A stretch of DNA of 64,000 nucleotides from a virus (taxonomy: Duplodnaviria; Heunggongvirae; Uroviricota; Caudoviricetes). Shown here piece by piece: positions 21,001 through 58,207 of this stretch (its first letter is position 1; every line of letters begins with the position of its first letter). The translations under genes and the position numbers were made by a program. The stretch lies in the IMG/VR virus record IMGVR_UViG_3300031344_000001; one strand, given 5' to 3'. The notes beneath the pieces are model-generated. The model was given only the letters and a program-made list of their open reading frames with translations. It ran no database searches and was not told the origin of the DNA.

Positions 21001-23153
21001 GACGATTCACCGTCGAGCAATACGGCAAGGCGCGGGACTGGGCCGAGCCCATCGTCTACGGCACCGACTACGTCATCGACGGCGTCTACGTGACGGCGGC
21101 CGAGTTCGACCGCGTCATGCGCCTCGAAGGGATCCCGTGACCGTTCAGAACGCAGCAAGGAGCGCTACATGATCGAGTCCGGTGCTCTCGATCTAACAAC
21201 CACGGTCACGGTCACGTACACAATCGGTGGCAGCGGCGGACCTGTCTATCGCGGCATTCCGTCACTCGACGCGGCGATCTCCATGCTGGATGACCTGGTG
21301 CGCTACGACGATACAGACGAGGCGATCGTGCGCACCTCGCTTGAGGTATCGTTCGACTACGTCGAAGACGCCCCCGAGAAATACTGGCAGGTAGCCGACG
21401 AAGACGGTCGTCCCAATCTGGTCATCAGCGAAGAGTTCCGTTGTGGCCATTGTGGAATGCGGAAGCCGTGACGTTCCACGACGAAAACGTGCGTCGCTGC
21501 CCATGGTGCGCGGAGGTCGTCGCCCCCGGTGACCTCACGCACTCACTCCTGCCGGGCTACCACTACGCCTGCGCTCTCCGATCCGCGATCGGCTCGATCG
21601 GCCACGTCCGCGGCACGTGCAGCTGCTACGTGAAGGACGGCACCGCAGAGGAGGATCCGCCCGGGCTCAGTCGACGCCAGGCAGCTCGGCTCGTCGCTGA
21701 CTACGTACGCCAGCAACAGGCTCTCGCGCCTTCGCCAGGGCGGAACTGATGCGCGCCCAAGGAAGGGGCCACAAAGCATGAAGGAGAGCGAAGCGAAAAC
21801 GTGGAAGGCAGAGACCGGCATGATGCCGTGCTGGATCATCTGGGAAGCCGCCTCCGACGGCGGTCGCCCCTACCTCATCGCCATCGACACGAGCGAGGAG
21901 CAGGCGAACCTGCACGTCCGCGCCAAGCGCGAGGAGGCGCGGCTACTCGACAGACCGCCGCCGCAGATCCGCGTCGAGGAGAGCTACCTCGACCACCTCT
22001 ACGGTGAGTCGATGACCAAGACGTTCGACGAGGCCAAGAAGATGATGAAGGACATCTTGCGCGCCCAGATCGTCGACCTGAAGGCTCGCCTCCGCTGCGC
22101 CGTCGACCTGGCACGCGACGCCGTCAAGCACAGCCACCTCCACCGAACCTCTGCGCAGGAGGTCCTCGACGCGCTCGCCAAGCTGGAGAAAGGGCTATGA
22201 CCACGCTCCTCACCGACCGCGTCGAGCAAGCGCTCCGACGCGCACACTGCTCGCACGCCGACAGCGCCGACCCTGAACACCAGTGTGTCGGCAGCTGCCT
22301 CATCACGCCCCAGGGGGTGAAGCTGTCCTGCAAGGCGTGCGGTGACGACGATCGCGCGATCGCGCCGTCCGACACGCTGCCGGAAACGAGACTCGTGCGC
22401 GCCGTGCTCGACGCGCTCGGCATCGCATACGACGCGCTGTCGCCCGAGTACAAGGTGCGCGCGGCGGAGACCGCAAAACGCTGGATGGGAACACGGAGAT
22501 ACTGATGAGCGACGACCCCAGAGACGAGAAGCGCTTGCACGGCCTGAACGCCGCAAGTGCCGGCAACCTAGGCAGCATCGACACGGGCAGTCTCCTGGGA
22601 CCGTGCCCGAGCTGCGGCGCCGAGTTGCACGACACCCACGTCAAGGACCCGAGGACCGGCCGTGTCGAGCGCGGGATGGTGCACCCGGTACCATTCTGCA
22701 CGTACTTCGGCGAGACCGACCCCGCGGTCATCGAGCGTGACGTCCGCCGCGCGCAGGAGGCTTCATGACGACAGCCACGATCACCCAATTATGCGCGGAG
22801 CACGCGGCGTTGACCGCGGTCTACCTCGCCGCCGCCAACTTGCGCCAGTTCCCGGTCCCCTTCGACGCACACTTCGAGTTGGTCGGTGCTGTGGACCAGT
22901 GCCGCGCCATCCTGGAACCCGCGCCCGAGGAGGATCCACGGTCCGACTGGCGGAAGCACGTCGCGGCGTACCCGCGCGAGGAGTTCCTGGCCACGTTCCG
23001 CGAGGCACACGCCACACTCCACCGCCTGTGGTCGGCAGCTGTGGGCACGGAGGGCTACGACAAGGAGGCGTGGAAGACGCTCGACAACGCGCTCGCGTGT
23101 TTCGCGCGTGACGCCTCCGAGAAGTGCGGCCTCGATCGATCGGAGCCACTCCT

Positions 23154-23606
23154 GTGACCGCAACGACCAGACCCCTCGTCGGCATCTCCGTCCTCATCCT
23201 GAAGGAAGGGAAGCTGCTCCTCGGCAAGCGTCGCGGTTCGCACGGCGCCGGAGAGTACGCGGCACCCGGCGGTCACCTCGAGCACCTGGAGAGCTTCCAG
23301 ACCTGCGCCACGCGCGAGGTTCTCGAAGAGGCCGGGATCGAGGTCGGCCCACTGCGCTTCCTGTGCGTGCGCAACGCCACGCAGTACGCGCCGAAGCACT
23401 ACGTCGAGATCGCGTTCGTCACCGAATGGAAGGCGGGCGAGCCAGAGGTCCGCGAGCCGGACAAGGTCGACCGCTGGGACTGGTACGCCCTCGATGCGCT
23501 ACCGTCCCCCCTGTTCGCGCTGCTACCGGGAGCGATCGCGATCCTGCGCGACGGCGGTCCGCCCTGCCAGGACGCTCCATGCGCGGTCACGGACCCGCGT
23601 ACGTGA
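23154..23606 (+). CDS. NUDIX hydrolase (MutT/NUDT15-like)
   Basis: LLGKRRGSHGAGEYAAPGGHLEHLESFQTCATREVLEEAG Nudix box and EPDK..W.W. Confidence 0.92.
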   Translation: MTATTRPLVGISVLILKEGKLLLGKRRGSHGAGEYAAPGGHLEHLESFQTCATREVLEEAGIEVGPLRFLCVRNATQYAPKHYVEIAFVTEWKAGEPEVREPDKVDRWDWYALDALPSPLFALLPGAIAILRDGGPPCQDAPCAVTDPRT

Positions 23607-28874: not shown

Positions 28875-29738
28875 TCAGCGAAAGGTCACAAAGCGCCCGC
28901 TCGGGTGAACGTAGCCGACGAAGCGCCCCTTGCTGACGCTGTAGACCCCCGCGGGTGCCCCCATCTCCTTGGCCACGCGCTTGGCGTCGGTGAGGTCGTA
29001 CGGCCGCACCGCGCCGCCCACGCGGCGCATCGGGACCTTCACCGAGCGCTCGGCGTGGCGGTGCGTCGCCTCCGGGTAGACGACGTACTCGTAGTCACGA
29101 GTCGCGGGCGCGATCGTGCTGTGCGCGAGCCCCCCTCCAAGCCTAGCCCGATGCTGTTGGTACACCGCATTGATCTCGGATTGAGCGATTCCGGTCCTGC
29201 TTGCGTAGTAGGCACCCATTCCAGTCCAGGGCTTCATCATCACGCGCCAGATTTCTGCCAACTCGTCGGGTGTATGCGCCTTGCTGAAATGTCTGTGCGC
29301 CCACGCAGCAGGTGCCCCCGGTGGCAGACTGATCTTGGAAGTCGCGATTGTGCTGTGCCCGCCGGGACCTCCGTGCTCCCCGCCGCCCGCGAGCGCCTCG
29401 GTGATCTCGGCGTCGAGCTGCGCGGGCGTCTTCTTCACCGGCGTCTCGCTCACCTCGCGCGGAGGCTTGCGCGCGCCGGGACGCTCGTTGATCACGTAGC
29501 GCTGCCACAGGTTGTAGCCCTGCCGCCCACCGACGCGGATCTGGACGCTACCCTTGCGCGCGCTGCCCACCACCGAGCACGCCTTGTGGCTCCTGCGACA
29601 CGCTTGCGCGGCGTGCTTCACTTCCTCGGCGAGCGCCTTCGCGGCGGCCTCCTTCGAGTGGAACTCGTGCGGACGTCCCGTGACCTCGTCGACGAGGTAG
29701 CCGCGCTGCGTCGCGATGATGTAGTGCTTGCCGGCCAT
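28875..29738 (-). CDS. Modular basic protein with the QLDxEI tag and two HSTI linkers
   Basis: KKTPAQLDAEITEAL, GGHSTI and LAHSTI. Confidence 0.75.
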   Translation of the reverse strand: MAGKHYIIATQRGYLVDEVTGRPHEFHSKEAAAKALAEEVKHAAQACRRSHKACSVVGSARKGSVQIRVGGRQGYNLWQRYVINERPGARKPPREVSETPVKKTPAQLDAEITEALAGGGEHGGPGGHSTIATSKISLPPGAPAAWAHRHFSKAHTPDELAEIWRVMMKPWTGMGAYYASRTGIAQSEINAVYQQHRARLGGGLAHSTIAPATRDYEYVVYPEATHRHAERSVKVPMRRVGGAVRPYDLTDAKRVAKEMGAPAGVYSVSKGRFVGYVHPSGRFVTFR

Positions 29739-29781
29739 GTGCGTCATCCTTGCAGGCTTTTGTCGTCGAAAGTCGAGCGCT

Positions 29782-30582
29782 TCAGCCCTGAGTGGCCGCG
29801 AGGTACCGCGCGACAATCTTCGACGCGCGATCCGGCGTCGTGCGACTGCGACTCGCACTCTTGATCGAACGCAGCCCATTGTCGTGAATGAGCACGTCAA
29901 CGAGGTCATACCCAAGCTTGTTCTTGGGGTCGGGCACCTTCACGTTGTAGTTGGTCCCGTCCGAACGCATCGAGATCGCGAGGATCTCGGGGAACTCCTC
30001 GCGGCGCTGGATCGTCTGCACGTGACGGCGTGCCTCCGCCGTCGGGTACAACCCCCCGTCACGGTTGATCGTGCTGTGAGCCTTGCGCCCGCGCTTCTTC
30101 AGCGCCGCGTCCTCCGCCGCCAGCTCCTGCGCGATCTGCTTCGCGATCCCGATCTGTTCCCGGTACTGCTTCTCGGTCAATCCAAGCTCAGCCGCCGTCT
30201 TGTTGCCGAGGTTGTGCTCGTGCCGATAGCGCAGACAGTTCGTGCACAGCGAGCCGGACAACGGACAGTGCTTGCCTGGCGCGTAGAGGATGGCGTCGAC
30301 CTCGCGACCGATCTTCGCGTGCTGACGCTTGGGCTTCTTCGCGCCACGCGACAGCCCCAGCTTCTCCACAGCCTTGTAGATCTGCTGCGCGTCCTCGGCG
30401 TGAAGTGCCGCGGAGTTCGCGTGCATCGACCTATTCGTCATGATGTCGCTGCGCTCCGCGTCACGGTGCACGTCGGCGGCATCCATGTGGTCGTCGGCCG
30501 TCCAGTCCCCGAAGTTCGGGTGCAGCTGGTAGGCCGCGTACACAGGCTTGCCGCTGCTCGTGTGTCCGATCGTCTTGGGCAT
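29782..30582 (-). CDS. Modular basic protein with HAKI and HSTI linkers
   Basis: MPKTIGHTSSGKPVY start, RQHAKI and KAHSTI. Confidence 0.7.
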   Translation of the reverse strand: MPKTIGHTSSGKPVYAAYQLHPNFGDWTADDHMDAADVHRDAERSDIMTNRSMHANSAALHAEDAQQIYKAVEKLGLSRGAKKPKRQHAKIGREVDAILYAPGKHCPLSGSLCTNCLRYRHEHNLGNKTAAELGLTEKQYREQIGIAKQIAQELAAEDAALKKRGRKAHSTINRDGGLYPTAEARRHVQTIQRREEFPEILAISMRSDGTNYNVKVPDPKNKLGYDLVDVLIHDNGLRSIKSASRSRTTPDRASKIVARYLAATQG

Positions 30583-30584
30583 CG

Positions 30585-31151
30585 CTAGATCCTCTCGTCG
30601 TAGAAGCCCTGGAGCTTCTCCGCGAGCGCGGCGGCGGCCAACGGGAACGGCGAATGCCCGCCCTCCGCGTCGCTGTCCACGTCGTCGGTCCACTGCCACA
30701 TCTCGGACTCACTGAACGCGACGCTCCCGTCCTCCGAGGCGTGCGCGGCGAGCATGTCCGGCCAGGCGTAGCGCCCACGCGCGAACTCGACCGCGCGCAG
30801 CTCGCTCGGCGTGAGCTGGAGCCGGTAGGCGACCCGAGACGGCGGCTGCTTCTTCCGTGCATGGCTCGAGGTGCAGGCCCCGCACGGCGACTTCTTCACC
30901 AGCGCGCCCGCGATCTCGCGGTCCAGCTGCGCGGGCGTCTTCTTGGCAGTCGCCGCCTTCGCGTGTTCCGCAGCCGCCGCCTTCGCCTTCCGCTCCGTGG
31001 GGAACGTACCGACGTGCTCGTGCTTGCCCGGGGGACGGAACGAGACCGTGTGCTGGTCCTTGCGGTGCGAGATCACGTAGTCGTGCTCGGTACCCCCGTG
31101 CGAGATCGGAGCCTGGATGCCGGGCATCCCCGGCTCCTTTTTCCACTTCAC
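30585..31151 (-). CDS. Modular protein with the QLDREI tag
   Basis: KKTPAQLDREIAGAL and SSHARKK. GTG start overlaps the upstream stop. Confidence 0.72.
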   Translation of the reverse strand: MKWKKEPGMPGIQAPISHGGTEHDYVISHRKDQHTVSFRPPGKHEHVGTFPTERKAKAAAAEHAKAATAKKTPAQLDREIAGALVKKSPCGACTSSHARKKQPPSRVAYRLQLTPSELRAVEFARGRYAWPDMLAAHASEDGSVAFSESEMWQWTDDVDSDAEGGHSPFPLAAAALAEKLQGFYDERI

Positions 31152-32191
31152 TCGAAGATCTCCGCGTAGCGCGTGATGCCGGGCGACGCCTCCAGCCAGT
31201 CGAGCAGGCGCCCCACCGCGCCGCGGTAGCCGGTCCACTCGACCACGGCGTAGCGCGCGTCCTTCGGCCGCCGGTATGACCGCCCGCGCGCCAGCTCCGC
31301 CTCGGCGAGCGGGACGCGGTCGTCGCGCCACGTGGCGTCGGCCGGGAGGTCGCGCCCGCGATCGAATTCGCGCGGGTCGATCTCGACGGCGAACAAAGCG
31401 CTCGCAGCCTTCGTGGCATGTGCCGTCCTACGCCCCGGACGCGATCCGCGGAGAGCCTCGGTGATCTCGCGATCGAGTTGGGCTGCCCGCGCCCTCAGCT
31501 TCGGATCGCGCTTGATCCGCTCGACGGCCTTGATCGCGGCGGCGATGTCCTCCACCACCTCGTCATCCACGGACTTCCTCTTCCTCGCGTGATGCACCGA
31601 ACTGCCAGACGGCCCGAACCACCGCCCGTCGCTGGTGACCGCGTGCCCCGCCCGATGAGCGCGCTCCAGCGCGTAGCCCACGCCCAGCACATCGGCACCT
31701 CCGATGGCGCGAGACATGCCGTGAGCGTCGATCTCTGTGCCCGGGCGCATGTTGCTGAGATGGGCCCTCACGCGCGCGTCGAGGTCCATCGTCGCGTGCG
31801 CGCGGGGCGGCACCTTGTAGCCCTTCGCCCGCGCCTGCGAGAGCCCGATCGCGATCGCCTGCTCGCGCGAGGTGACCTTGGCGCCGCTGCCGCTCTTCAG
31901 CTTGCCGCGCTTGAACTCGTGCATCGTCCGCCCGACCTTCTCGGACGCCTTCTCACTGTACTTCGTCGCATGCGTGGGCGCGTCGGCGTCGGCCCTCTTC
32001 GCGCTGAACTTGAAGGCCCCGGCGCTCGAGACCGCGCCGCGGAGCTTGTACTTGGCCTTGGCGATGGCCGCCGCGGATGTGGTGGCCGCCTCGTAGTACG
32101 TCTTCACGGGGGCTCCCCCCACAGTGACGTCCACTCTCCAACGCGGGACTTGCAGCATCTTCTTGTCCTCTCGGGTCATCGGCGCATCCAC
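31148..32191 (-). CDS. Five-module polyprotein-like protein containing a DUF6496-like module and the tag
   Basis: HATK, HATM, HARK and HATK linkers. Module KYSEKASEKVGRTMHEFKRGKLKSGSGAKVTSREQAIAIGLSQAR. Tag AQLDREITEAL. Confidence 0.8.
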   Translation of the reverse strand: MDAPMTREDKKMLQVPRWRVDVTVGGAPVKTYYEAATTSAAAIAKAKYKLRGAVSSAGAFKFSAKRADADAPTHATKYSEKASEKVGRTMHEFKRGKLKSGSGAKVTSREQAIAIGLSQARAKGYKVPPRAHATMDLDARVRAHLSNMRPGTEIDAHGMSRAIGGADVLGVGYALERAHRAGHAVTSDGRWFGPSGSSVHHARKRKSVDDEVVEDIAAAIKAVERIKRDPKLRARAAQLDREITEALRGSRPGRRTAHATKAASALFAVEIDPREFDRGRDLPADATWRDDRVPLAEAELARGRSYRRPKDARYAVVEWTGYRGAVGRLLDWLEASPGITRYAEIFE

Positions 32192-32811
32192 TCGTACGGA
32201 CGGCGGGCCTCACGCTCTTCTTCTTGAAGGCGCTTGGACTCCTCACGATATCGACGGTAGTTCGCTTCGTGACCGTGCTCCTGGGCCTGGGCCCACGTGC
32301 TCGACACCAGCTCATCGCGCTCGCGCTGGAGCGCGCGGATCGGCTCGGACTCGTACGCCGGATGCCCAGGTACGTACGGCACGTGTCCCCCCGCCTCGTA
32401 GATCATTTTGTCGAGGGCGTCGCGTGTGCGCGCCATCTTGAGGTGGCCCTCGTCAGTGTAGGACGCCTCGACGGAGGCCACGGCGCGCTTGTACGCGGCG
32501 ACCTTGGACCGCCACTTCTTCATGACCTCGACGGGGAGACCGAGATCGACGGCCTGCGCGATCTCCCTGTCCAGTTGAGCGGGCGGCGTCTTCTTCGTCG
32601 CATGGTGCGTGCTTCCCACCGCCTGGCGTCCCACCCCGGTGACCTTGAACAGCGGGCGGAGTCCGAGGAAACCGTCCGGCTCGATGAGCCCGCGCGCGCG
32701 CAGCACCTCGCGGGTGCGTTCGTCACCCCCGACGATCCGACCGAACATGTGGCGACTCGCCGCTTCGAGGATGCGACGCTGCGCGGGCGTCAGCTTGGCG
32801 GACGTGGTCAC
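32176..32811 (-). CDS. Winged-helix-like N-domain plus tag plus helical C-domain
   Basis: KLTPAQRRIL...LRARGLIE...KVTGVGRQAV, then HHATKKTPPAQLDREIAQAV. Confidence 0.72.
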   Translation of the reverse strand: MTTSAKLTPAQRRILEAASRHMFGRIVGGDERTREVLRARGLIEPDGFLGLRPLFKVTGVGRQAVGSTHHATKKTPPAQLDREIAQAVDLGLPVEVMKKWRSKVAAYKRAVASVEASYTDEGHLKMARTRDALDKMIYEAGGHVPYVPGHPAYESEPIRALQRERDELVSSTWAQAQEHGHEANYRRYREESKRLQEEEREARRPYEWMRR

Positions 32812-33032
32812 GGGCTCAGCCTACCAGAACTACTACCGGCACCGACGGCGGCGGCGGGTCCCGAAGCACGGCAGCGCGCCCTGGCAGTCCGGCAAGGGGC
32901 CCGTGTCCACGCTCAGCATCGTGACCGAGCTCGTGGTCACCACCCGCGGGTTCGGCGGGCACGCGCCCGCGGGGATGCAGATCAGGTTGGTCTTGACCAC
33001 GGGCTGATCGTAGCAGTCCTCACGGCGCGACC

Positions 33033-33434
33033 TCAAGAAAGTGGCCTCACGAGACGGCGGCCGGCGAAGCGGCGCAGCACCTTGCGGTGTAACGGGATCA
33101 GGTCCCACGTCCACGCGACCTCCCGGGGCACCCATGCCGATCGCGTGTTCTCGCCGTCGAGCAGGCGCACCAGCCCGTTCCAGTCGTCGGCGTAGAGTAC
33201 GTCGAGCCTGCCACCACCCGGCACGGCCACCTGCGTGAGCGGCGAAAGCGCGTAGACACGGAGACCCGCCTCCTCATGCGACTCACGCATCGCGGCCTCG
33301 GTGACAGACTCACCGTTCTCGATCCTGCCGCCCGGGAGGTTCCATCGTAGAGGCATCCACGGATCGGTGGGCCCGCGCAGAAGAAGCAACACACGCCCGC
33401 GACCATCCTCGAAGATCACCGACACGCCGCGCAT
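33033..33434 (-). CDS. NUDIX hydrolase
   Basis: [27 protein letters not shown] Nudix box. Confidence 0.9.
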
Positions 33435-34242
33435 GCGGTGAACTTACACCGATCTTCGCAGCCTCTCCCTGGACCTTCGTTGTAGAAAGCACCCATGCGA
33501 ATCGAACTCTCCGAAGGCGAAGCCGTCGTCGTCACGTTCCGAGGCACCGACGGTGAAATCACCGTCGCCTTCAAACCCGAAGACGTGCAGATCCTCACGG
33601 GCTGCCGCGAGGACGTAGCGCGTGAGTTGCCCTACGGCATCAGCGTCCACACGGATATGCCCGACACGGCCAACCGTGTCGGCTTGATCTACAACGAACC
33701 TCTCGCCACTCGACCCCCCAAAGAAGGCGTGCCCCTCGCCTGAGGGACGCCTCAGCTCAGTGCCCTCGTGACACCCTGAGCGAACCCGCGCTACGATCAC
33801 CTCGTGGCCACACGCCTCTTCTATAACGCCGACCTCGTCGAGCAGCTGGCCGCGTGCGGGATCACGGCGCGCCGACGCTCGTCGGCCGACGCCCCCGCGG
33901 CGGGTTTCGTGATAGAGGGACGGCGCGCTCCACTGCGAGCACGCCAGGCCGTAACCAACGTGATCGCCGTGCGAGAGCACGTGACGATCACGGGCCCCCG
34001 CCAACTGACGGCCCTCCCCCCGCCCCTGGCCCTCCCCGCGTCGACGGCGCCCGGGCCCCAGACGGCGCTCGAGCTGGTCGAGGAGTGCGCGCGCCTCCGC
34101 CGTGACAACCAGAACCTGTCGAACGAGGTCACGCGGTTGCGCGCGGAGATCAACCGCCTGACCGCTGGACCCGCCGCGCCGCCGCCGCGGGATCCGCCCG
34201 ACGACGCTTCGACGCGGTTCTCACTGCTGGAGTTGAGCTGAC

Positions 34243-34683
34243 GTGAGCCTCACGCCGCGAACACTGCGTGAGTTGGAGGCACGCCTCCTCCGTCTGGAGG
34301 TTCGCGTCGAGATGCGCCGCCGCCTGCGCCCCGAGGTCTGGGAGGCACGGAAGGACGGCCCGTGGACCGAGGCCGACTTCTACGACTGGGAAGGTCCCTG
34401 CGACTTCCTCATCGACGTCGACGCGGTCGAGCACGCGGACGGGCTGATCCTCTTGTGCCCCGCGTGCTACGACGACCCGCCCGTGGGGCCCGTCGGCACG
34501 CACAGCGTCGTCTGCTGGTCGCCGAAGGTCAGCCAGGACCACGACCCGAAGCCCGGGCGCTGGGACCTCGTCGGGACCTCGATCGACGACCTCACGCTCG
34601 TCGCCGGGTCGTCGAGCGTCTTGCTCCAGGGCGGCTGCAACGCGCACTTCTTCGTGCGTCAGGGGCGCGTCGTGCCGTGCTAG
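34243..34683 (+). CDS. DUF6527-like protein
   Basis: LCPAC...H...WDLVGTSIDDLTL...SVLL..GCNAHFFVRQGRV. Confidence 0.6.
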   Translation: MSLTPRTLRELEARLLRLEVRVEMRRRLRPEVWEARKDGPWTEADFYDWEGPCDFLIDVDAVEHADGLILLCPACYDDPPVGPVGTHSVVCWSPKVSQDHDPKPGRWDLVGTSIDDLTLVAGSSSVLLQGGCNAHFFVRQGRVVPC

Positions 34684-34988
34684 CGTCGCGTACGGTGGCT
34701 GTCGGCGACTACGCGAAGCTCGACCGCGCTCTTCGGGTCCGCGTGGAGGCGTCGACGAAGCACGCTCTACTACGGCTCCAAAGAAGAGCACGCGGCCACG
34801 GAGCGCGTCCCGCCGGTTCTTGCGAGATCACGGTTGAATGTTTACTCTTTGGAAAGTCCCATTTCTGGGGGTTGAAAAATGAGCACCGAGACGATCTGAT
34901 CTAAGCTGTTGGAACCCCGTCGACGATCCGCCGTTGCTGCGGGCCGAAGAAGTCGCATTTCATCCACAGCGTCAGTAAGATCCGCCCG

Positions 34989-35468
34989 ATGGGCACGACC
35001 TACATGGACTTCGGTACCGGCGTCTTCCACGTAGACGGCGACGCGCCGCTCACCCAGGCCCAAGTCGACTCCGTGTGGCGGCACCTGCCGACCACCGGTG
35101 CGAGCTGGGTCGAACGGGGACGCCTCTTCGCGCAGCAGTCCGACGGCGCGCCAGCGTTCAACCTCGGACCCGTCGAGCGCGGGGTCAAGGGCGTCTCCGC
35201 CGATGTACGGCGGAATCACGCGACAAAGAAGAAGCCCACAGCACCTTCTCAGTTGGACCGCGAGATCGCCGAAGCCTTGTCGAAGGACTATCGCGTCACG
35301 GTGCGTGTGGAAGGGGCCCCCAAGCCGGTCCACGTTTCCCCTTGGATGACGCGCGCGCAAGCCGAACACGCAGCCAAGAATCACAAGGCTCTGATCCGAG
35401 ATCGTGGTTGGACGCAGGTTGTCGAGATCGAAGACAAGAGCGGAGCTGTTACGCGACTTCCACGCTAG
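34989..35468 (+). CDS. Two-module protein with a central HATK linker and tag
   Basis: NHATKKKPTAPSQLDREIAEAL. Confidence 0.75.
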   Translation: MGTTYMDFGTGVFHVDGDAPLTQAQVDSVWRHLPTTGASWVERGRLFAQQSDGAPAFNLGPVERGVKGVSADVRRNHATKKKPTAPSQLDREIAEALSKDYRVTVRVEGAPKPVHVSPWMTRAQAEHAAKNHKALIRDRGWTQVVEIEDKSGAVTRLPR

Positions 35469-36570
35469 TTCAACGTTCCGCCTCGGTGCGTGCAGCTCGG
35501 AGAGATCTCTCTTTGTTGGCGGGTCGCCAGCCTCGTCGGGTAGGATGACCCTCGTGCACTCCGCGACCGTCCACGCCCCCAGCGCCGTCAAGCCTCCGTT
35601 GAACGACGACCGCCTGCCCCGCCGCTGGGAGCGGATCGCGCTGGAGGTCCGCTCGTGAGCGACGTGACGTCGCCCGACGCCGCCCCTCCGTCGGCGGACG
35701 ACATTGCGCACCTGCTCATGGGCTCGGGGATCCCGATGCCCCCGCCGCCGTCGAACAAGGGGGCGCTGCGCCGCAAGCTCCTGGCGGCCGTCCTGATCGC
35801 CGGCGTCGGCGTCGGCGCGTCGGTCATGTCGTGCGTCGGCCAGTCGTTCAGCTACCGGCAGGCACGCGCGCTGGAAGGTATCGAGCAGCAGCTCCGGGAG
35901 GTCCGCGCGAGCTGCCCCTCGTACGTCCCCGCGCCCCCGAGCGCCGGTGCGAAGATGCCATGAGCCGGACGAGGACGAGGCACCGTGACCCGATCTCTCC
36001 GAGGCGCTACCTCCTCAAGGACTGGCCCCCGCGACGCCGTGCCCTGCGCACGAGCTGGCACCTGCGCGACGCGATCGCGAACCTGAGGACACCGTGAACC
36101 GCGAGGAGGCCGCGCGCGCGATCGAGACCCTCGCGGCTTCACCAGCCGCAAGGTGGATCGGCAACAGGCTCATCGGCAACACGCTGCTCCAGAAGTGCTC
36201 GCTTTGCGGCGCGGAAGAGACGCTGGAGGTCCCGCCGAACATCCGCGGTCCCGGCGACGTACCGGCAGGCTTCGACGAGACCCTGTTCGCGTGGAAACGC
36301 TCGTTCCAGGTCACCCACGAAAGCTGCGCCTCGTGAGCGCTGCACACCCGACCTGCGAGGACTCCAGCTGCGCGATCTGCCGAGAGCGCGTGCGCCTGGT
36401 AGCCCTGAAGATCGAGCGCGGACTGCGCCCGGCAGGGAACTCCCGGCTCATCATCGCGAGGATCAAGGAGCGCGTACGCCGCCTCCAGGCCCAAGGGCGC
36501 GCGTGAAGTGACACCGAGCGCGGCACTGACCGACAATTCGACGAGACTCACCTACCGACAGGAACGAACC

Positions 36571-37068
36571 ATGGCGAAGCGCTACTCGGGCAACCTCCAG
36601 ATCAGCGTCGTCTACGACGACAAGGGCCACTACCGGACGTCGGTGAGCAGCGGCGGCAAGCACCTGTGGAGCGGCGTCGTGAACCCCGCGCCCGCGGGCT
36701 TCGGCCCCGGCATCGCGTACGACTCGCCGAAGGCGTACGACGAGGTAGCCTCGAGTGCGCTCGCGTTCGCCGACGACGAGGAGCACGGCATCGCCGACGA
36801 GGCCGAGTTCGACGAGGACCTCACCGGCTATCTGATCCGACGATCGCCGCCGTCAAAAACCAAGACACCGCGCCACGCGACGAAGCTCGGCGGTGGGTCC
36901 GCCCCGTGGTACCGGTGGCTCGTGAACTACCGCGACAGCCGTGGCAAGATTCAGCAGACGCAGGTCGACTCCACGACGCGCCGAGACGCGATCGCTGCCG
37001 CAAGCGTCGGCCACCCGACGGGGCGCGACTTCACGGCCGCCAAGCTCTCAACCAAGCCGCTGAAGTAA
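36571..37068 (+). CDS. Two-module protein separated by HATK
   Basis: MAKRYSGNLQI...YDSPKAYDEVA domain, RHATK linker, then a second small domain. Confidence 0.72.
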   Translation: MAKRYSGNLQISVVYDDKGHYRTSVSSGGKHLWSGVVNPAPAGFGPGIAYDSPKAYDEVASSALAFADDEEHGIADEAEFDEDLTGYLIRRSPPSKTKTPRHATKLGGGSAPWYRWLVNYRDSRGKIQQTQVDSTTRRDAIAAASVGHPTGRDFTAAKLSTKPLK

Positions 37069-37079
37069 GAAGATCCGTC

Positions 37080-37532
37080 ATGGCCGTCTGGGGCACGAAG
37101 GTCACCAAGCAGAAGATCGAGCAGCTCGCTCGCGCGTTGTTCCCGAAGTACGGGATCAAGGACGTGCCCAACCTCCTCGCGACGATCGTCAAGTACCGTA
37201 GCAACGACGGTCACGTGAAGATCTGGCGCCCGGAGGGCGGCTGGGGTTGGTTCGCGACACCGGCCGCGACTGTCGTCACCCCGAGCCTCGTCACCCTCAA
37301 GTTCCCCGCCGACTACCGGCGCACCGCCGCGATGGCGCGCGACGATCTCTACCGCCAGCTCGAGAACGCCACGCTCAGCGTGCTGTCGGAGGACGAGGTC
37401 GAGGCCGCAATGACCCGAGCCAGCGCCAGCGCCAGGCCAACGACGCCGCAGCACTCGACGAAGAAGGCCCCCGCCCAACTCGACCGCGAGATCGCGGCGG
37501 CGCTCCACAAGAACCGCAAGAGTCGCCGGTGA
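37080..37532 (+). CDS. Hypothetical protein with a C-terminal HSTK linker and tag
   Basis: QHSTKKAPAQLDREIAAAL. Confidence 0.75.
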   Translation: MAVWGTKVTKQKIEQLARALFPKYGIKDVPNLLATIVKYRSNDGHVKIWRPEGGWGWFATPAATVVTPSLVTLKFPADYRRTAAMARDDLYRQLENATLSVLSEDEVEAAMTRASASARPTTPQHSTKKAPAQLDREIAAALHKNRKSRR

Positions 37533-38096
37533 GCACGCGCAAGCCGAGGGAAGCGCCCATGGACGCGGGCGCTTCCACAGCCCCAAGCGAGAGCGCTGGT
37601 ACAACGACGCGGTTCTCGCCGCCGCCTCCTCCACCCCGCCCGCAGAAGAAGTCATCCCGCGGACCTCGCGTCCGTCTGACCCACTTCGAGATCCGCCGCG
37701 GCGAAAGCCTCCGCCTGCGGATGTCGGTGGCCGACGACGCGCTCGCCGAGGTCGGCGACGAGCTGGGCGCGCTGGTCAAGAAGATCGTCCCTGGCGTGCG
37801 GGTCGCCACCAGCGTCGCGCCAGAGCAGCAGCTCGTCTCCGAGTCCCAGTCCCACGTCCCCGAGCACGCGGACTTCATCATCTCCCCGCAGCATGACGAC
37901 AACGACGCGGCCTACCACGAGACACTGCGCGAGCACATGACCGCGCTGTGCGGCTCCCTCTGCGACGAGTCGCTCGCCGACGTGCTCAAGATCGCGCGCG
38001 ACGAGAGCGCACGCCGCGCGGAGGGGCGCAACTGAGAACGCCAACGTCGACCGTTCTCCCCGCGGCGCGACGCTTGGCGTAGTACGATCAGACGCG

Positions 38097-38471
38097 ATGA
38101 TCCTCGTGAAGAAGCAAGGCCCCTTCGAGGTCTTCTCCCGTGGCGTCGAGGAGCCCTGGACGGTCTGGCGCGACGGACAGCCCTACCGCCAGGTGTGGAC
38201 GTGGAAAGAAGTCGACGAGATCTTGCGCGAGACGGTGGTGCCCAAGGCCAGCCACCACCACGCCACGACCAAGAAGACCGAGGTCGTCCTCGCGAAACGG
38301 AACCGCCCGCGCGCGGGCGTCGGAGAACCGCGCCACTACGCGACGCTCGTCGACAAGGACAGCGGTCGCCACGTCTACAGGTCTCCGGTGAAGGGCACCC
38401 CGGAGGAGGCTGCCGGCCTCGCCGAGGCGTTCGCCGCGCGGCGAGGGCTCACGATCGCGGGGCGTGTCTGA
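38097..38471 (+). CDS. Two-module protein separated by HATTKK
   Basis: SHHHATTKK linker between two ~55 aa modules. Confidence 0.65.
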   Translation: MILVKKQGPFEVFSRGVEEPWTVWRDGQPYRQVWTWKEVDEILRETVVPKASHHHATTKKTEVVLAKRNRPRAGVGEPRHYATLVDKDSGRHVYRSPVKGTPEEAAGLAEAFAARRGLTIAGRV

Positions 38472-42776: not shown

Positions 42777-43252
42777 CTACCAGTCACCGCGTGCGTACGC
42801 CTTGAACCGCCACGTCCGGCCGTCAACGTGGTCGACCACCTGGTCATCCTGCGTGCGGATCGTCCGGCGCTTGTCGCCGCGCATGCCCGATCCGACCTGC
42901 CGCCGTCGATCAGCAGCACGCGCGCCCTGCGCGGTGGACCGCGCCAGCTCGGCGACGCGCGCGGCGAGGACCCTCATCGCCAACGCGCGGTTCAGGTGCT
43001 GCGATCGCTCGGACTCGCAGCGGACCTCGATCCCGGTCGGCCGGTGTCGAGCGCGCACCGCCGAGTCCGTCTTGTTCCGGTGCTGGCCGCCCGCGCCCGA
43101 CCCACGCATCGTCTCGACGTCGACGTCCTCCGCGCGGATCACGAGTTCAGCGAGCTGGGGCTCCTCCAGCACCGCGACCGTGATCGTGCTCGTGTGCACG
43201 CGCCCGCGTTTCTCGTTCGGCGGCGTCCGCTGCCACCGGTGGATGCGTCCAT
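42777..43252 (-). pseudogene. Peptide chain release factor-like (RF-1 domain, GGQ), N-terminally disrupted
   Basis: HRWQRTPPNEKRGRVHTSTITVAVL, GSGAGGQHRNKTDSAVR, ERSQHLNR and GSGMRGDKRRTIR. The RBS-linked ATG at 43252 is out of frame with this domain. Confidence 0.8.
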
Positions 43253-43264
43253 AGCTAGCCTCCG

Positions 43265-43350
43265 CGGAAGACGGCGGAGTCGAACCGCAACCCCTCACGG
43301 GGTCCATCCGTTTAGCAAACGGCTCTCGCGCCACCGCGAGTTCATCTTCC
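43265..43350 (-). tRNA. tRNA-Ser(GCT)
   Basis: GGAAGAT/GTCTTCC-G acceptor, loop TTGCTAA, long variable arm, GGTTCGACTCC T arm. Confidence 0.85.
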
Positions 43351-43355
43351 ATGCG

Positions 43356-43440
43356 CGGAGCATTTGGGAATCGAACCCGGACCGTTTCCGGCCTCCCCGT
43401 TTTCGAGACGGGTGCCCACGCCATGCGGGCCTCATGCTCC
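43356..43440 (-). tRNA. tRNA-Ser(CGA)
   Basis: GGAGCAT/ATGCTCC-G acceptor, CCCGT-CTCGAAA-ACGGG anticodon arm, long variable arm. T stem has two mismatches. Confidence 0.75.
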
Positions 43441-43523
43441 AAATCCAGGAGTCGCTCAGTAGCGGGTAGCTACGAGCGACTGCGACTAGACGAGAATGAG
43501 AAGAACGACGTCATCGAAACACT

Positions 43524-43601
<78 letters not shown>

Positions 43602-43606
43602 CCAAG

Positions 43607-43635
43607 AAGCTATGCGACTACAACAGCCGCGTCAA
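43607..43635 (-). promoter_or_regulatory. Sigma70-type promoter for the Met/Ser/Ser tRNA cluster
   Basis: TTGACG-17 nt-TAGCTT immediately upstream of tRNA-Met. Confidence 0.6.
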
Positions 43636-44149
43636 GCCCTATCTGAGGATCGATTCTTGTGAAAAATGTAATGCGCCGCGCCAACGGACACCCGGTACTT
43701 CGCTGCGAGATCTCGAAATTCCATTCCTGCCCGTCGGTCAGCGCAGAGCGCAACCTCGTCTTCATCGGACAGCCGCCGTCGCCTCAACGAGGCGTGTACG
43801 GCCATCGATCGGCGAACTTCCGATAGACGATCCATGCTGTTTTGTCGCGGGGTGCCAAGAACCAAGTTGGTGGACCTATTGTTCGTGCAATCCCCATCGA
43901 GGTGACGCACCTCAAGACTCTCCTGAAAGACGGCCTCTCCATAAAGCTGATAGGCCGCAATACGGTGAACTTCGACGTTCATCACACGCCCCTCAATCTT
44001 CAAACCAATGGCACAGTACCCACTACCAGCCCTACGCGAGAGAGAGAGAGCCTTCGTCCGTTTGGACCAAACACGTTTCCGTCCCCATCAACGGTATAGC
44101 CGCGACGGATCGCTTCTAGTAACAGTTCACGTCCTCGCAACGTGCTCAT
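43632..44149 (-). pseudogene. HNH homing endonuclease, frameshifted at a (CT)6 tract
   Basis: N-part MSTLRG...GYTVDGDGNVFGPNGRR starts at ATG 44149. C-part GY...VHRIAAY...VRHLDGDCTNNRSTNL plus an HTH-like tail. Removing one CT unit joins the two frames. Confidence 0.8.
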
Positions 44150-44261
44150 AGCCACAGACTAAACCCGCCGCACCGAAAACACCGAAGCTCAGAAGCCACA
44201 ACGATTAACGCTTGACTGAATCTTGGAGGAGCCTGCATAGTGCCTCGTTCTCTGAAAACTT

Positions 44262-58087: not shown

Positions 58088-58207
58088 AGCAGCCGAGTGA
58101 AGAGTGCTTGGATGAATGCAGGGAGTTTTGAAATCCCAACCTTCGGCTTCGTAGGCCGACGCTCTACCGTTGAGCTATGCGTGTGAGCACTCTAAGGATT
58201 GGCTGCT
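58088..58207 (-). ncRNA. tRNA-Arg(ACG)-like domain on a long extended stem
   Basis: TAGCTCAACGGTAGAGC D arm, TCGGC-CTACGAA-GCCGA, degenerate T arm. The acceptor is replaced by the stems AGAGTGCT/AGCACTCT and AGCAGCC/GGCTGCT. Confidence 0.65.

Follow-up and report, generated by a model that had tools for sequence, protein, structure and literature searches.

A DUF6496 domain among shuffled modules joined at a conserved His-Ala motif in a phage-like element

Why would a bacterial mini-protein that usually stands alone lie in the middle of a longer viral chain, with the same short peptide on either side of it? The question is raised by a gene at 31148-32191 (minus strand) in a 64,000-nucleotide (nt) stretch of IMG/VR record IMGVR_UViG_3300031344_000001, a virus assigned to the Caudoviricetes; this whole stretch is referred to below as the window. 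The gene product carries DUF6496 (PF20106), a small basic bacterial family whose free proteins measure 60-110 amino acids (aa). The full profile of the family is matched here, whereas the domain lies inside a chain of 343 aa with His-Ala-Thr (HAT) on both sides, hence membership applies at the level of the domain only. An earlier note on this DNA had suggested that HAT marks the joints between modules which stand alone elsewhere. Comparison of the protein with its relatives leaves this suggestion well supported, and the DUF6496 module provides the clearest internal evidence for it, because it is the sole piece with a curated family.

A complete DUF6496 domain in a chain of five modules

The open reading frame (ORF) comprises 347 codons from a GTG, not counting the stop, and all residue numbers below are those of this 347-aa translation. 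An ATG at 32179-32177 (minus strand) overlaps the TGA of the upstream gene as ATGA and is the likely true start, which would give a protein of 343 aa (P0002); a further ATG at 32158-32156 coincides with the N-termini of relatives that begin with the first module, M1. The guanine-plus-cytosine content at third codon positions is 0.89, typical for coding DNA of the window. P0002 is on record with an identical sequence on the 21 metagenome contigs that we read, which come from several soil samples, hence the gene is real and no assembly accident. One of these contigs is 302.7 kilobases (kb) long and the longest is reported at 461.4 kb. The gene is that of a very large, uncultured virus-like element from soil. 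When 28.0-38.5 kb of the window was compared with phage records by megablast no match was obtained, and a search of IMG/VR with P0002 returned four short matches only, all of them to DUF6496. Pfam, PHROGs and NCBIfam recognised DUF6496 alone in this protein.

An AlphaFold model of the protein, with a 69-sequence alignment as input, has a mean predicted local distance difference test (pLDDT) score of 84 and a predicted template modelling (pTM) score of 0.38. Because high pLDDT is combined with low pTM, the model shows five independent folded pieces, in line with the five modules proposed in the earlier note, and the protein is predicted to consist of well-folded modules without a fixed mutual arrangement, like beads on a string. 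pLDDT dips at four sites, HATK (residue 74), HATM (132), HHARK (200-204) and HATK (258), and all four joints carry a motif of the type [SGA]-H-[AS]-[TRK]-[KM].

The modules and joints, all on the minus strand, follow one another from the N-terminus. M1 (residues 12-70; 31982-32158) has a predicted beta-beta-alpha-beta fold and is not covered by Pfam; many relatives begin with it, and in others it is placed internally, after HATM, HSTM or HSTR. Joint 1 is the His-Ala-Thr of residues 74-76 (CAT GCG ACG; 31964-31972), at the first pLDDT dip. Module D (residues 77-130; 31802-31963) is the complete DUF6496 domain, modelled as a helix, a beta-hairpin and a second helix, and is followed by joint 2 (His-Ala-Thr, residues 132-134, CAC GCG ACG; 31790-31798) and directly by Met135. 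Module W (residues 135-196; 31604-31789) has three helices and a beta-hairpin and appears winged-helix-like: in the AlphaFold model its secondary structure fits a three-helix bundle with a beta-hairpin wing, and its best Foldseek matches are MarR-, CRP- and GntR-type regulators, all of them weak (E 2e-3 or weaker). Joint 3, the His-Ala-Arg of HHARKRK (residues 201-203; 31583-31591), lies in the stretch of lowest pLDDT. Module 4 (approximately residues 207-250; 31442-31573) is a helical hairpin, the second helix of which is an AQLDREI-EAL tag common to nine proteins of the window. After joint 4 (His-Ala-Thr, residues 258-260, CAT GCC ACG; 31412-31420) the chain ends in M5 (residues 265-347; 31151-31399), which has a predicted ferredoxin/ACT-like alpha-beta fold (TM ~0.62 against ACT domains in the Atlas) and for which no relative was found in IMG/VR or in GTDB species genomes.

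Pfam places DUF6496 at residues 77-130 with an E value of 1e-18 (67.9 bits against a cut-off of 24), the match spanning positions 1-57 of the 58 in the profile. The earlier note had recognised the segment at 31799-31963 as this usually free family, lying exactly between HATK and HATM, and both observations hold, with the HAT of residues 74-76 and that of 132-134 flanking the domain. Free DUF6496 proteins do exist. Among 150 matches listed, 63 are proteins of at most 120 aa with the core motif; they start MAKYS- or MARKYS- and end in -KVP and a basic tail, which are the same limits as those of the domain in the window (start -KYSEKASEK-, end -KVPP). Joint 1 aligns with the Met-Ala-Arg start of the relatives that begin with DUF6496, the initiator Met filling the His column in 32 of them, and with M1 in front the MARKY- start of the family reads HATKY-. 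A joint motif of the H-[AS] type is found in only four of the 63 free proteins, and H-[AS] follows the DUF6496 domain in 133 of the 144 cases with more than 30 residues after it. Copies from giant elements share 69-84% identity with the domain in the window and form a subgroup of their own, the free forms sharing 56-67%. Modelled alone, the domain takes the same fold (pLDDT 81). No significant match was found among solved structures (best Foldseek E ~1; best VIA Z 4.1, to generic helical hairpins), a null result which does not make the fold new, and our literature search found no paper mentioning DUF6496.

Shuffled architectures and the peptide at their joints

An exhaustive HMMER search with this protein matched 2,328 representatives at E 1e-3 or better. 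The matched stretches form discrete blocks of the query (residues 12-79, 75/76-130/134, 135-208 and 235- or 264-347), which very often start at residue 1-4 of the other protein and whose limits coincide with the HAT/HAR sites. Homologs extending across the HAT sites had been named in the earlier note as a point that would speak against joints; the matched blocks do respect the HAT/HAR sites, but many homologs align straight across the HATM joint, and in approximately 100 relatives DUF6496 comes first and is joined to W at this HAT-M.

We catalogued nine reference modules and the tag in 186 relatives of at least 120 aa, and found 68 architectures, such as D-W-B, D-W-q-M5, M1-q-X, G-D-W-B, D-D-W-q-M5 and D-W-B-I-K-Y. 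The arrangement in the window, M1-D-W-x-q-M5, is unique within this census. DUF6496, winged helix-turn-helix (wHTH), QLDREI tag and M5 (D-W-q-M5) form a conserved architecture of ~250 aa; this is evidently the conserved core of the family, and the N-terminal M1 is evidently the addition of this protein. The idea of a captured mini-gene stands in so far as the DUF6496 domain is complete and free elsewhere, but the many relatives beginning DUF6496-W show that it was not newly captured here.

The module after DUF6496 was correctly taken to begin at the Met of HATM, as W starts at this Met of its own in P0160, P0147 and P0150. Likewise, when W, M1 or B is internal, its initial Met is retained and immediately follows the motif (HAT-M), and these starts are the same as in relatives which carry the module at the N-terminus. 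M5 is last in every architecture containing it among those listed in the census; it is free-standing in L016 (P0170), where a stop codon lies directly upstream, and N-terminal in P0135. Identical modules also occur in tandem (D-D in P0004, W-W in P0031). Module G is a separate gene directly upstream of a D-W-q-M5 gene in L020 and is fused to D via HATKK in P0032 and P0062, hence exchange between neighbouring genes is apparent, whether by fusion or by fission. Three further candidates were rejected. P0132 (86 aa), considered as a free M5, is a truncated gene call whose ORF runs off the contig, HSTKAM being encoded upstream of the start that was called; in L019, DUF6496 and wHTH genes lie side by side and look like a disrupted fusion and not a clean split; and the 69-aa gene before P0003 is not M1.

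Chance does not explain the three HAT of the protein, since 0.088 are expected from its composition and three are reached in 10 of 200,000 shuffles. In the window, H[AS][TR][KIM] occurs ten times in the 2,480 coding residues of 28.8-38.5 kb and not once in the 10,615 elsewhere. Throughout the census of 186 relatives, 325 of the 382 internal module starts (85%) have H-[AS] among the 14 residues that precede them. H-[AS] lies at most 10 residues upstream of 64% of local-alignment starts, compared with 17% at random positions, and totals 532 occurrences against 253 expected; these counts come from related, non-independent sequences, and the effect is large. The proposal that HAT marks joints nevertheless requires two corrections, in that joint 3 is HHARK and a further HAV (residues 183-185) is no joint. 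The latter was rejected because it is part of the wing of module W and its His column shows no conservation (L 17, V 7, H 5 and F 5 of 41).

In the motif consensus, Ser, Gly, Ala or His precedes the His, which is followed by Ala much more often than Ser, then by Thr, or next Arg and Lys, and then by Lys, Met or Arg. Column conservation is high at joint 2 (H 39/42, A 38/42, T 35/42) and joint 3 (H 47/51, A 48/51), with H and A kept in at least 90%, and amounts to 75% and 67% for H and A at joint 4 (H 41/55, A 37 plus S 10 of 55, T 42/52); the flanking linker residues vary. At 16 sites in the window the motif codons vary synonymously (CAC or CAT; GCG, GCC or GCA, or AGC or TCG; ACG or ACA), which argues that selection acts on the peptide and not on the DNA. 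The peptide motif at the joints, in otherwise variable disordered linkers, is under purifying selection.

The QLDREI helix of module 4 accompanies this motif and is usually bracketed by two His sites. Nine in-frame copies of the tag are present in nine proteins of the window (at 29444, 30953, 31504, 32601, 35226, 37452, 48806, 54402 and 57286), in N-terminal, internal or C-terminal position. The tag is basic and amphipathic, of the form KK-x-P-[AS]-QLD-x-EI-x-x-AL. It is conserved as a peptide, since nucleotide identity between the copies averages only ~60%; one pair shares an exact 20-nt run. A DNA-level recombination site was rejected as the main cause of conservation, both because the motif codons vary and because the tag DNA is so divergent. 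A T4-type capsid targeting sequence, which is a short, extreme N-terminal tag that the prohead protease removes, was also rejected for QLDxEI given its internal and C-terminal copies.

Possible roles of the His-Ala motif

As a serious though tentative possibility, we favour a small polyprotein that is processed at [SGA]-H-[AS]-[TRK]-[KM]. The His-Ala peptide would be the recognition site of a dedicated endopeptidase, and one translation product would be cut into mini-proteins, including a DUF6496 unit that corresponds to the protein found free in bacteria. In this scheme the QLDREI helix could be detached and would serve as a tag or spacer, perhaps in targeting or packaging. Processing is favoured because the position of the motif agrees with domain limits in module pairs that are unrelated, because the modules keep their own Met after the motif, hence a nearby cut would give natural N-termini, and because identical modules occur in tandem. 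Some serine proteases prefer sites of the Ala-X-Ala type, of which the small residues around the His (Ser, Gly or Ala before it, Ala or Ser after it) are reminiscent. Viral polyproteins and polyubiquitin-type precursors similarly hold independent units in one chain with a short conserved site at each junction, and here a conserved short motif is found at the unit boundaries of all four joints. Polyubiquitin units keep their own first Met, as do the modules in this family. Our case differs from viral polyproteins, however, in that the units are heterogeneous and shuffled, not fixed, the host is presumably bacterial and the cognate protease is only a candidate.

Processing is further favoured because giant phages are known to have proteases that act on short motifs repeated in their proteins. 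In SPN3US the prohead protease gp245 recognises AXE and cuts behind it, at several places in one protein (PMC10052503), and related prohead-protease rules are described for phiKZ and T4 (PMC10052503, PMC5694885). As in those substrates, a short conserved motif is repeated here in several proteins of one giant element. The SPN3US cuts are made after Glu and, protease self-cleavage apart, remove N-terminal propeptides, whereas the motif described here is centred on His, lies between folded domains and is a putative cleavage site.

A further argument for processing is that proteolytic release of domains has been proposed for the polyvalent proteins of phages (Iyer, Burroughs, Anand, de Souza, Aravind 2017, PMC5512222). 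These likewise combine many unrelated domains in one mobile-element polypeptide, with mosaicism between relatives; the two to fifteen distinct domains and mosaic architectures by which they are recognised find a match in the five modules here and in the number of architectures in our census. Polyvalent proteins are large, carry enzymatic or anti-restriction domains and often an in-chain zincin peptidase, whereas this protein is small, with modules of 45-85 residues, no in-chain peptidase and a conserved joint motif. No polyvalent conflict domain (zincin MPTase, methylases, ArdC-N or ParB-like) was found in it by Pfam, PHROGs or NCBIfam. In the main text of PMC5512222 the word 'linker' occurs 0 times, and we came across no account of a conserved motif at joints in that paper. 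The family may represent shuffled domains of the modular or polyvalent mobile-element kind, possibly with polyprotein processing.

Several points weigh against processing. Cleavage at the motif is a prediction, and so are its products and its protease. His is not enriched at protein C-termini (10/258), giving no support for a cut directly after His, and several residues occur at position 3 of the motif (T 246, R 75, K 58, A 33 and others), hence there is no single obvious scissile bond. Furthermore, DUF6496 and the winged helix are adjacent in ~100 proteins, and both M5 and Y are last in every architecture listed in the census, from which some modules may act together in cis. The only peptidases found in the window are encoded by two zincin genes 15 kb from this gene (46523-47599, minus strand), one SprT-like (46523-47182; Pfam E 6.5e-06) and one YgjP-like (47183-47599; Pfam E 1.4e-29), each with an intact HExxH; they are possible, and no more than candidate, processing enzymes.

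The order of the modules would also suit a chain that is never cut, in which the motif is a short linear docking or hinge motif of a multi-domain adaptor, and the His-Ala-Thr/Lys peptide and QLDREI helix are repeated binding sites raising avidity. We regard this, the main alternative, as possible but rather doubtful. Function in cis would account for the D-W order, for M5 and Y at the C-terminus and for B, which is C-terminal in 29 D-W-B proteins, and peptide-level conservation in disordered linkers suits any linear motif. The extra His at position -1 of the motif (67/532), the basic residues that follow it and the varied positions of the tag in the nine window proteins are also consistent with docking. 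However, a binding motif need not sit at domain boundaries, yet H-[AS] precedes the large majority of internal module starts, and the initiator Met right after the motif is left unexplained. The partner, whether capsid, scaffold, transport partner, nucleic acid or metal, is putative.

It is improbable that the motif is an evolutionary seam only, that is a permissive linker inherited with the cassettes and lacking any biochemical role, with shuffling by recombination between similar linker or tag DNA of neighbouring paralogous genes. Module G, as a separate gene in one contig and fused to D in two proteins, would be expected from such recombination, as would the 20-nt run shared by one tag pair. 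The synonymous variation of the motif codons fits poorly with it, as does the low average identity of the tag DNA, and drift of the flanks contrasts with the retention of H and A (at least 90% at joints 2 and 3, ~70% at joint 4), which indicates purifying selection on the peptide. Internal translation starts, by which the Met after HAT would serve as an initiation codon and modules would also be made separately from one mRNA, are very improbable: Met directly follows H-[AS]-x at 149 of ~530 sites and relatives do begin at that Met, but most joints have Lys or Arg, so that a minority of joints would be explained, no GGAGG-like ribosome-binding sequence was seen by eye before the ATG of HATM, the one site inspected, and the conserved His-Ala would be left unexplained.

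If polyprotein processing is extended beyond this protein, the outline becomes more speculative, and we put it forward with low confidence. In a clade of giant virus-like elements from soil, clusters of small genes might encode shuffled strings of mini-proteins cut by a His-Ala-specific endopeptidase, with QLDREI as a portable targeting tag and DUF6496 as cargo taken from, or aimed at, the host, a strategy so far undescribed for bacterial viruses. The modular grammar itself is real and unusually clean, and it is the biochemical role of its motif that we infer. Most genes of huge phages have no assigned function, and this family suggests an organising rule, with dozens of unrelated mini-domains swapped as cassettes at one peptide joint, hence domain limits become readable from the sequence. 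Should the chain indeed be processed at the joint, the cutting enzyme would have a specificity new among proteases, a bacterial virus could supply a large set of small effectors compactly from a small number of genes, and a function could for the first time be approached for DUF6496, whose mini-proteins are widespread in bacteria. Without any cutting the motif is still a linear one under strong selection, and the search for its partner would be worthwhile.

Gene neighbourhood

This gene and eight others (at 28875, 29782, 30585, 32176, 34989, 36508, ~37080 and 38097), all with H-[AS]-[TRK] linkers between small modules, make up a cluster at 28875-38471 of the window. Searches of the neighbouring motif-bearing proteins with Pfam and PHROGs (five proteins) and with NCBIfam (seven) gave nothing significant. 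P0059 and P0147 both end in the module that is C-terminal in the 30585 gene. In L015 (419-1138, 1057-1305), a short related contig, the gene order of the window is kept, with a gene ending in M5, a 239-aa protein with HATR...HATKK and the QLDREI tag, and a homolog of the 28875 gene, which suggests that the cluster is syntenic across relatives.

The gene content of the window fits a huge phage-like element. It includes eleven tRNA genes, five of them tRNA-Leu in a row (43264-45818, 51568-52034 and 58113-58184), a transfer-messenger RNA (tmRNA; 44262-44616) with the tag ANDNGAVAFAA and an RF-1-like gene (42777-43469) that adjoins the tRNA/tmRNA genes. RNA ligase, HIT, ThiF-like, HNH, 2OG-oxygenase and RNase T-like exonuclease genes are also present, together with two NUDIX hydrolase genes (33033-33434, minus strand, and 23112-23606, plus strand). 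The first of the NUDIX genes adjoins the His-motif cluster, and in two related loci, L021 and the contig of P0150, a NUDIX gene likewise precedes the DUF6496-type gene at a distance of no more than a few kb.

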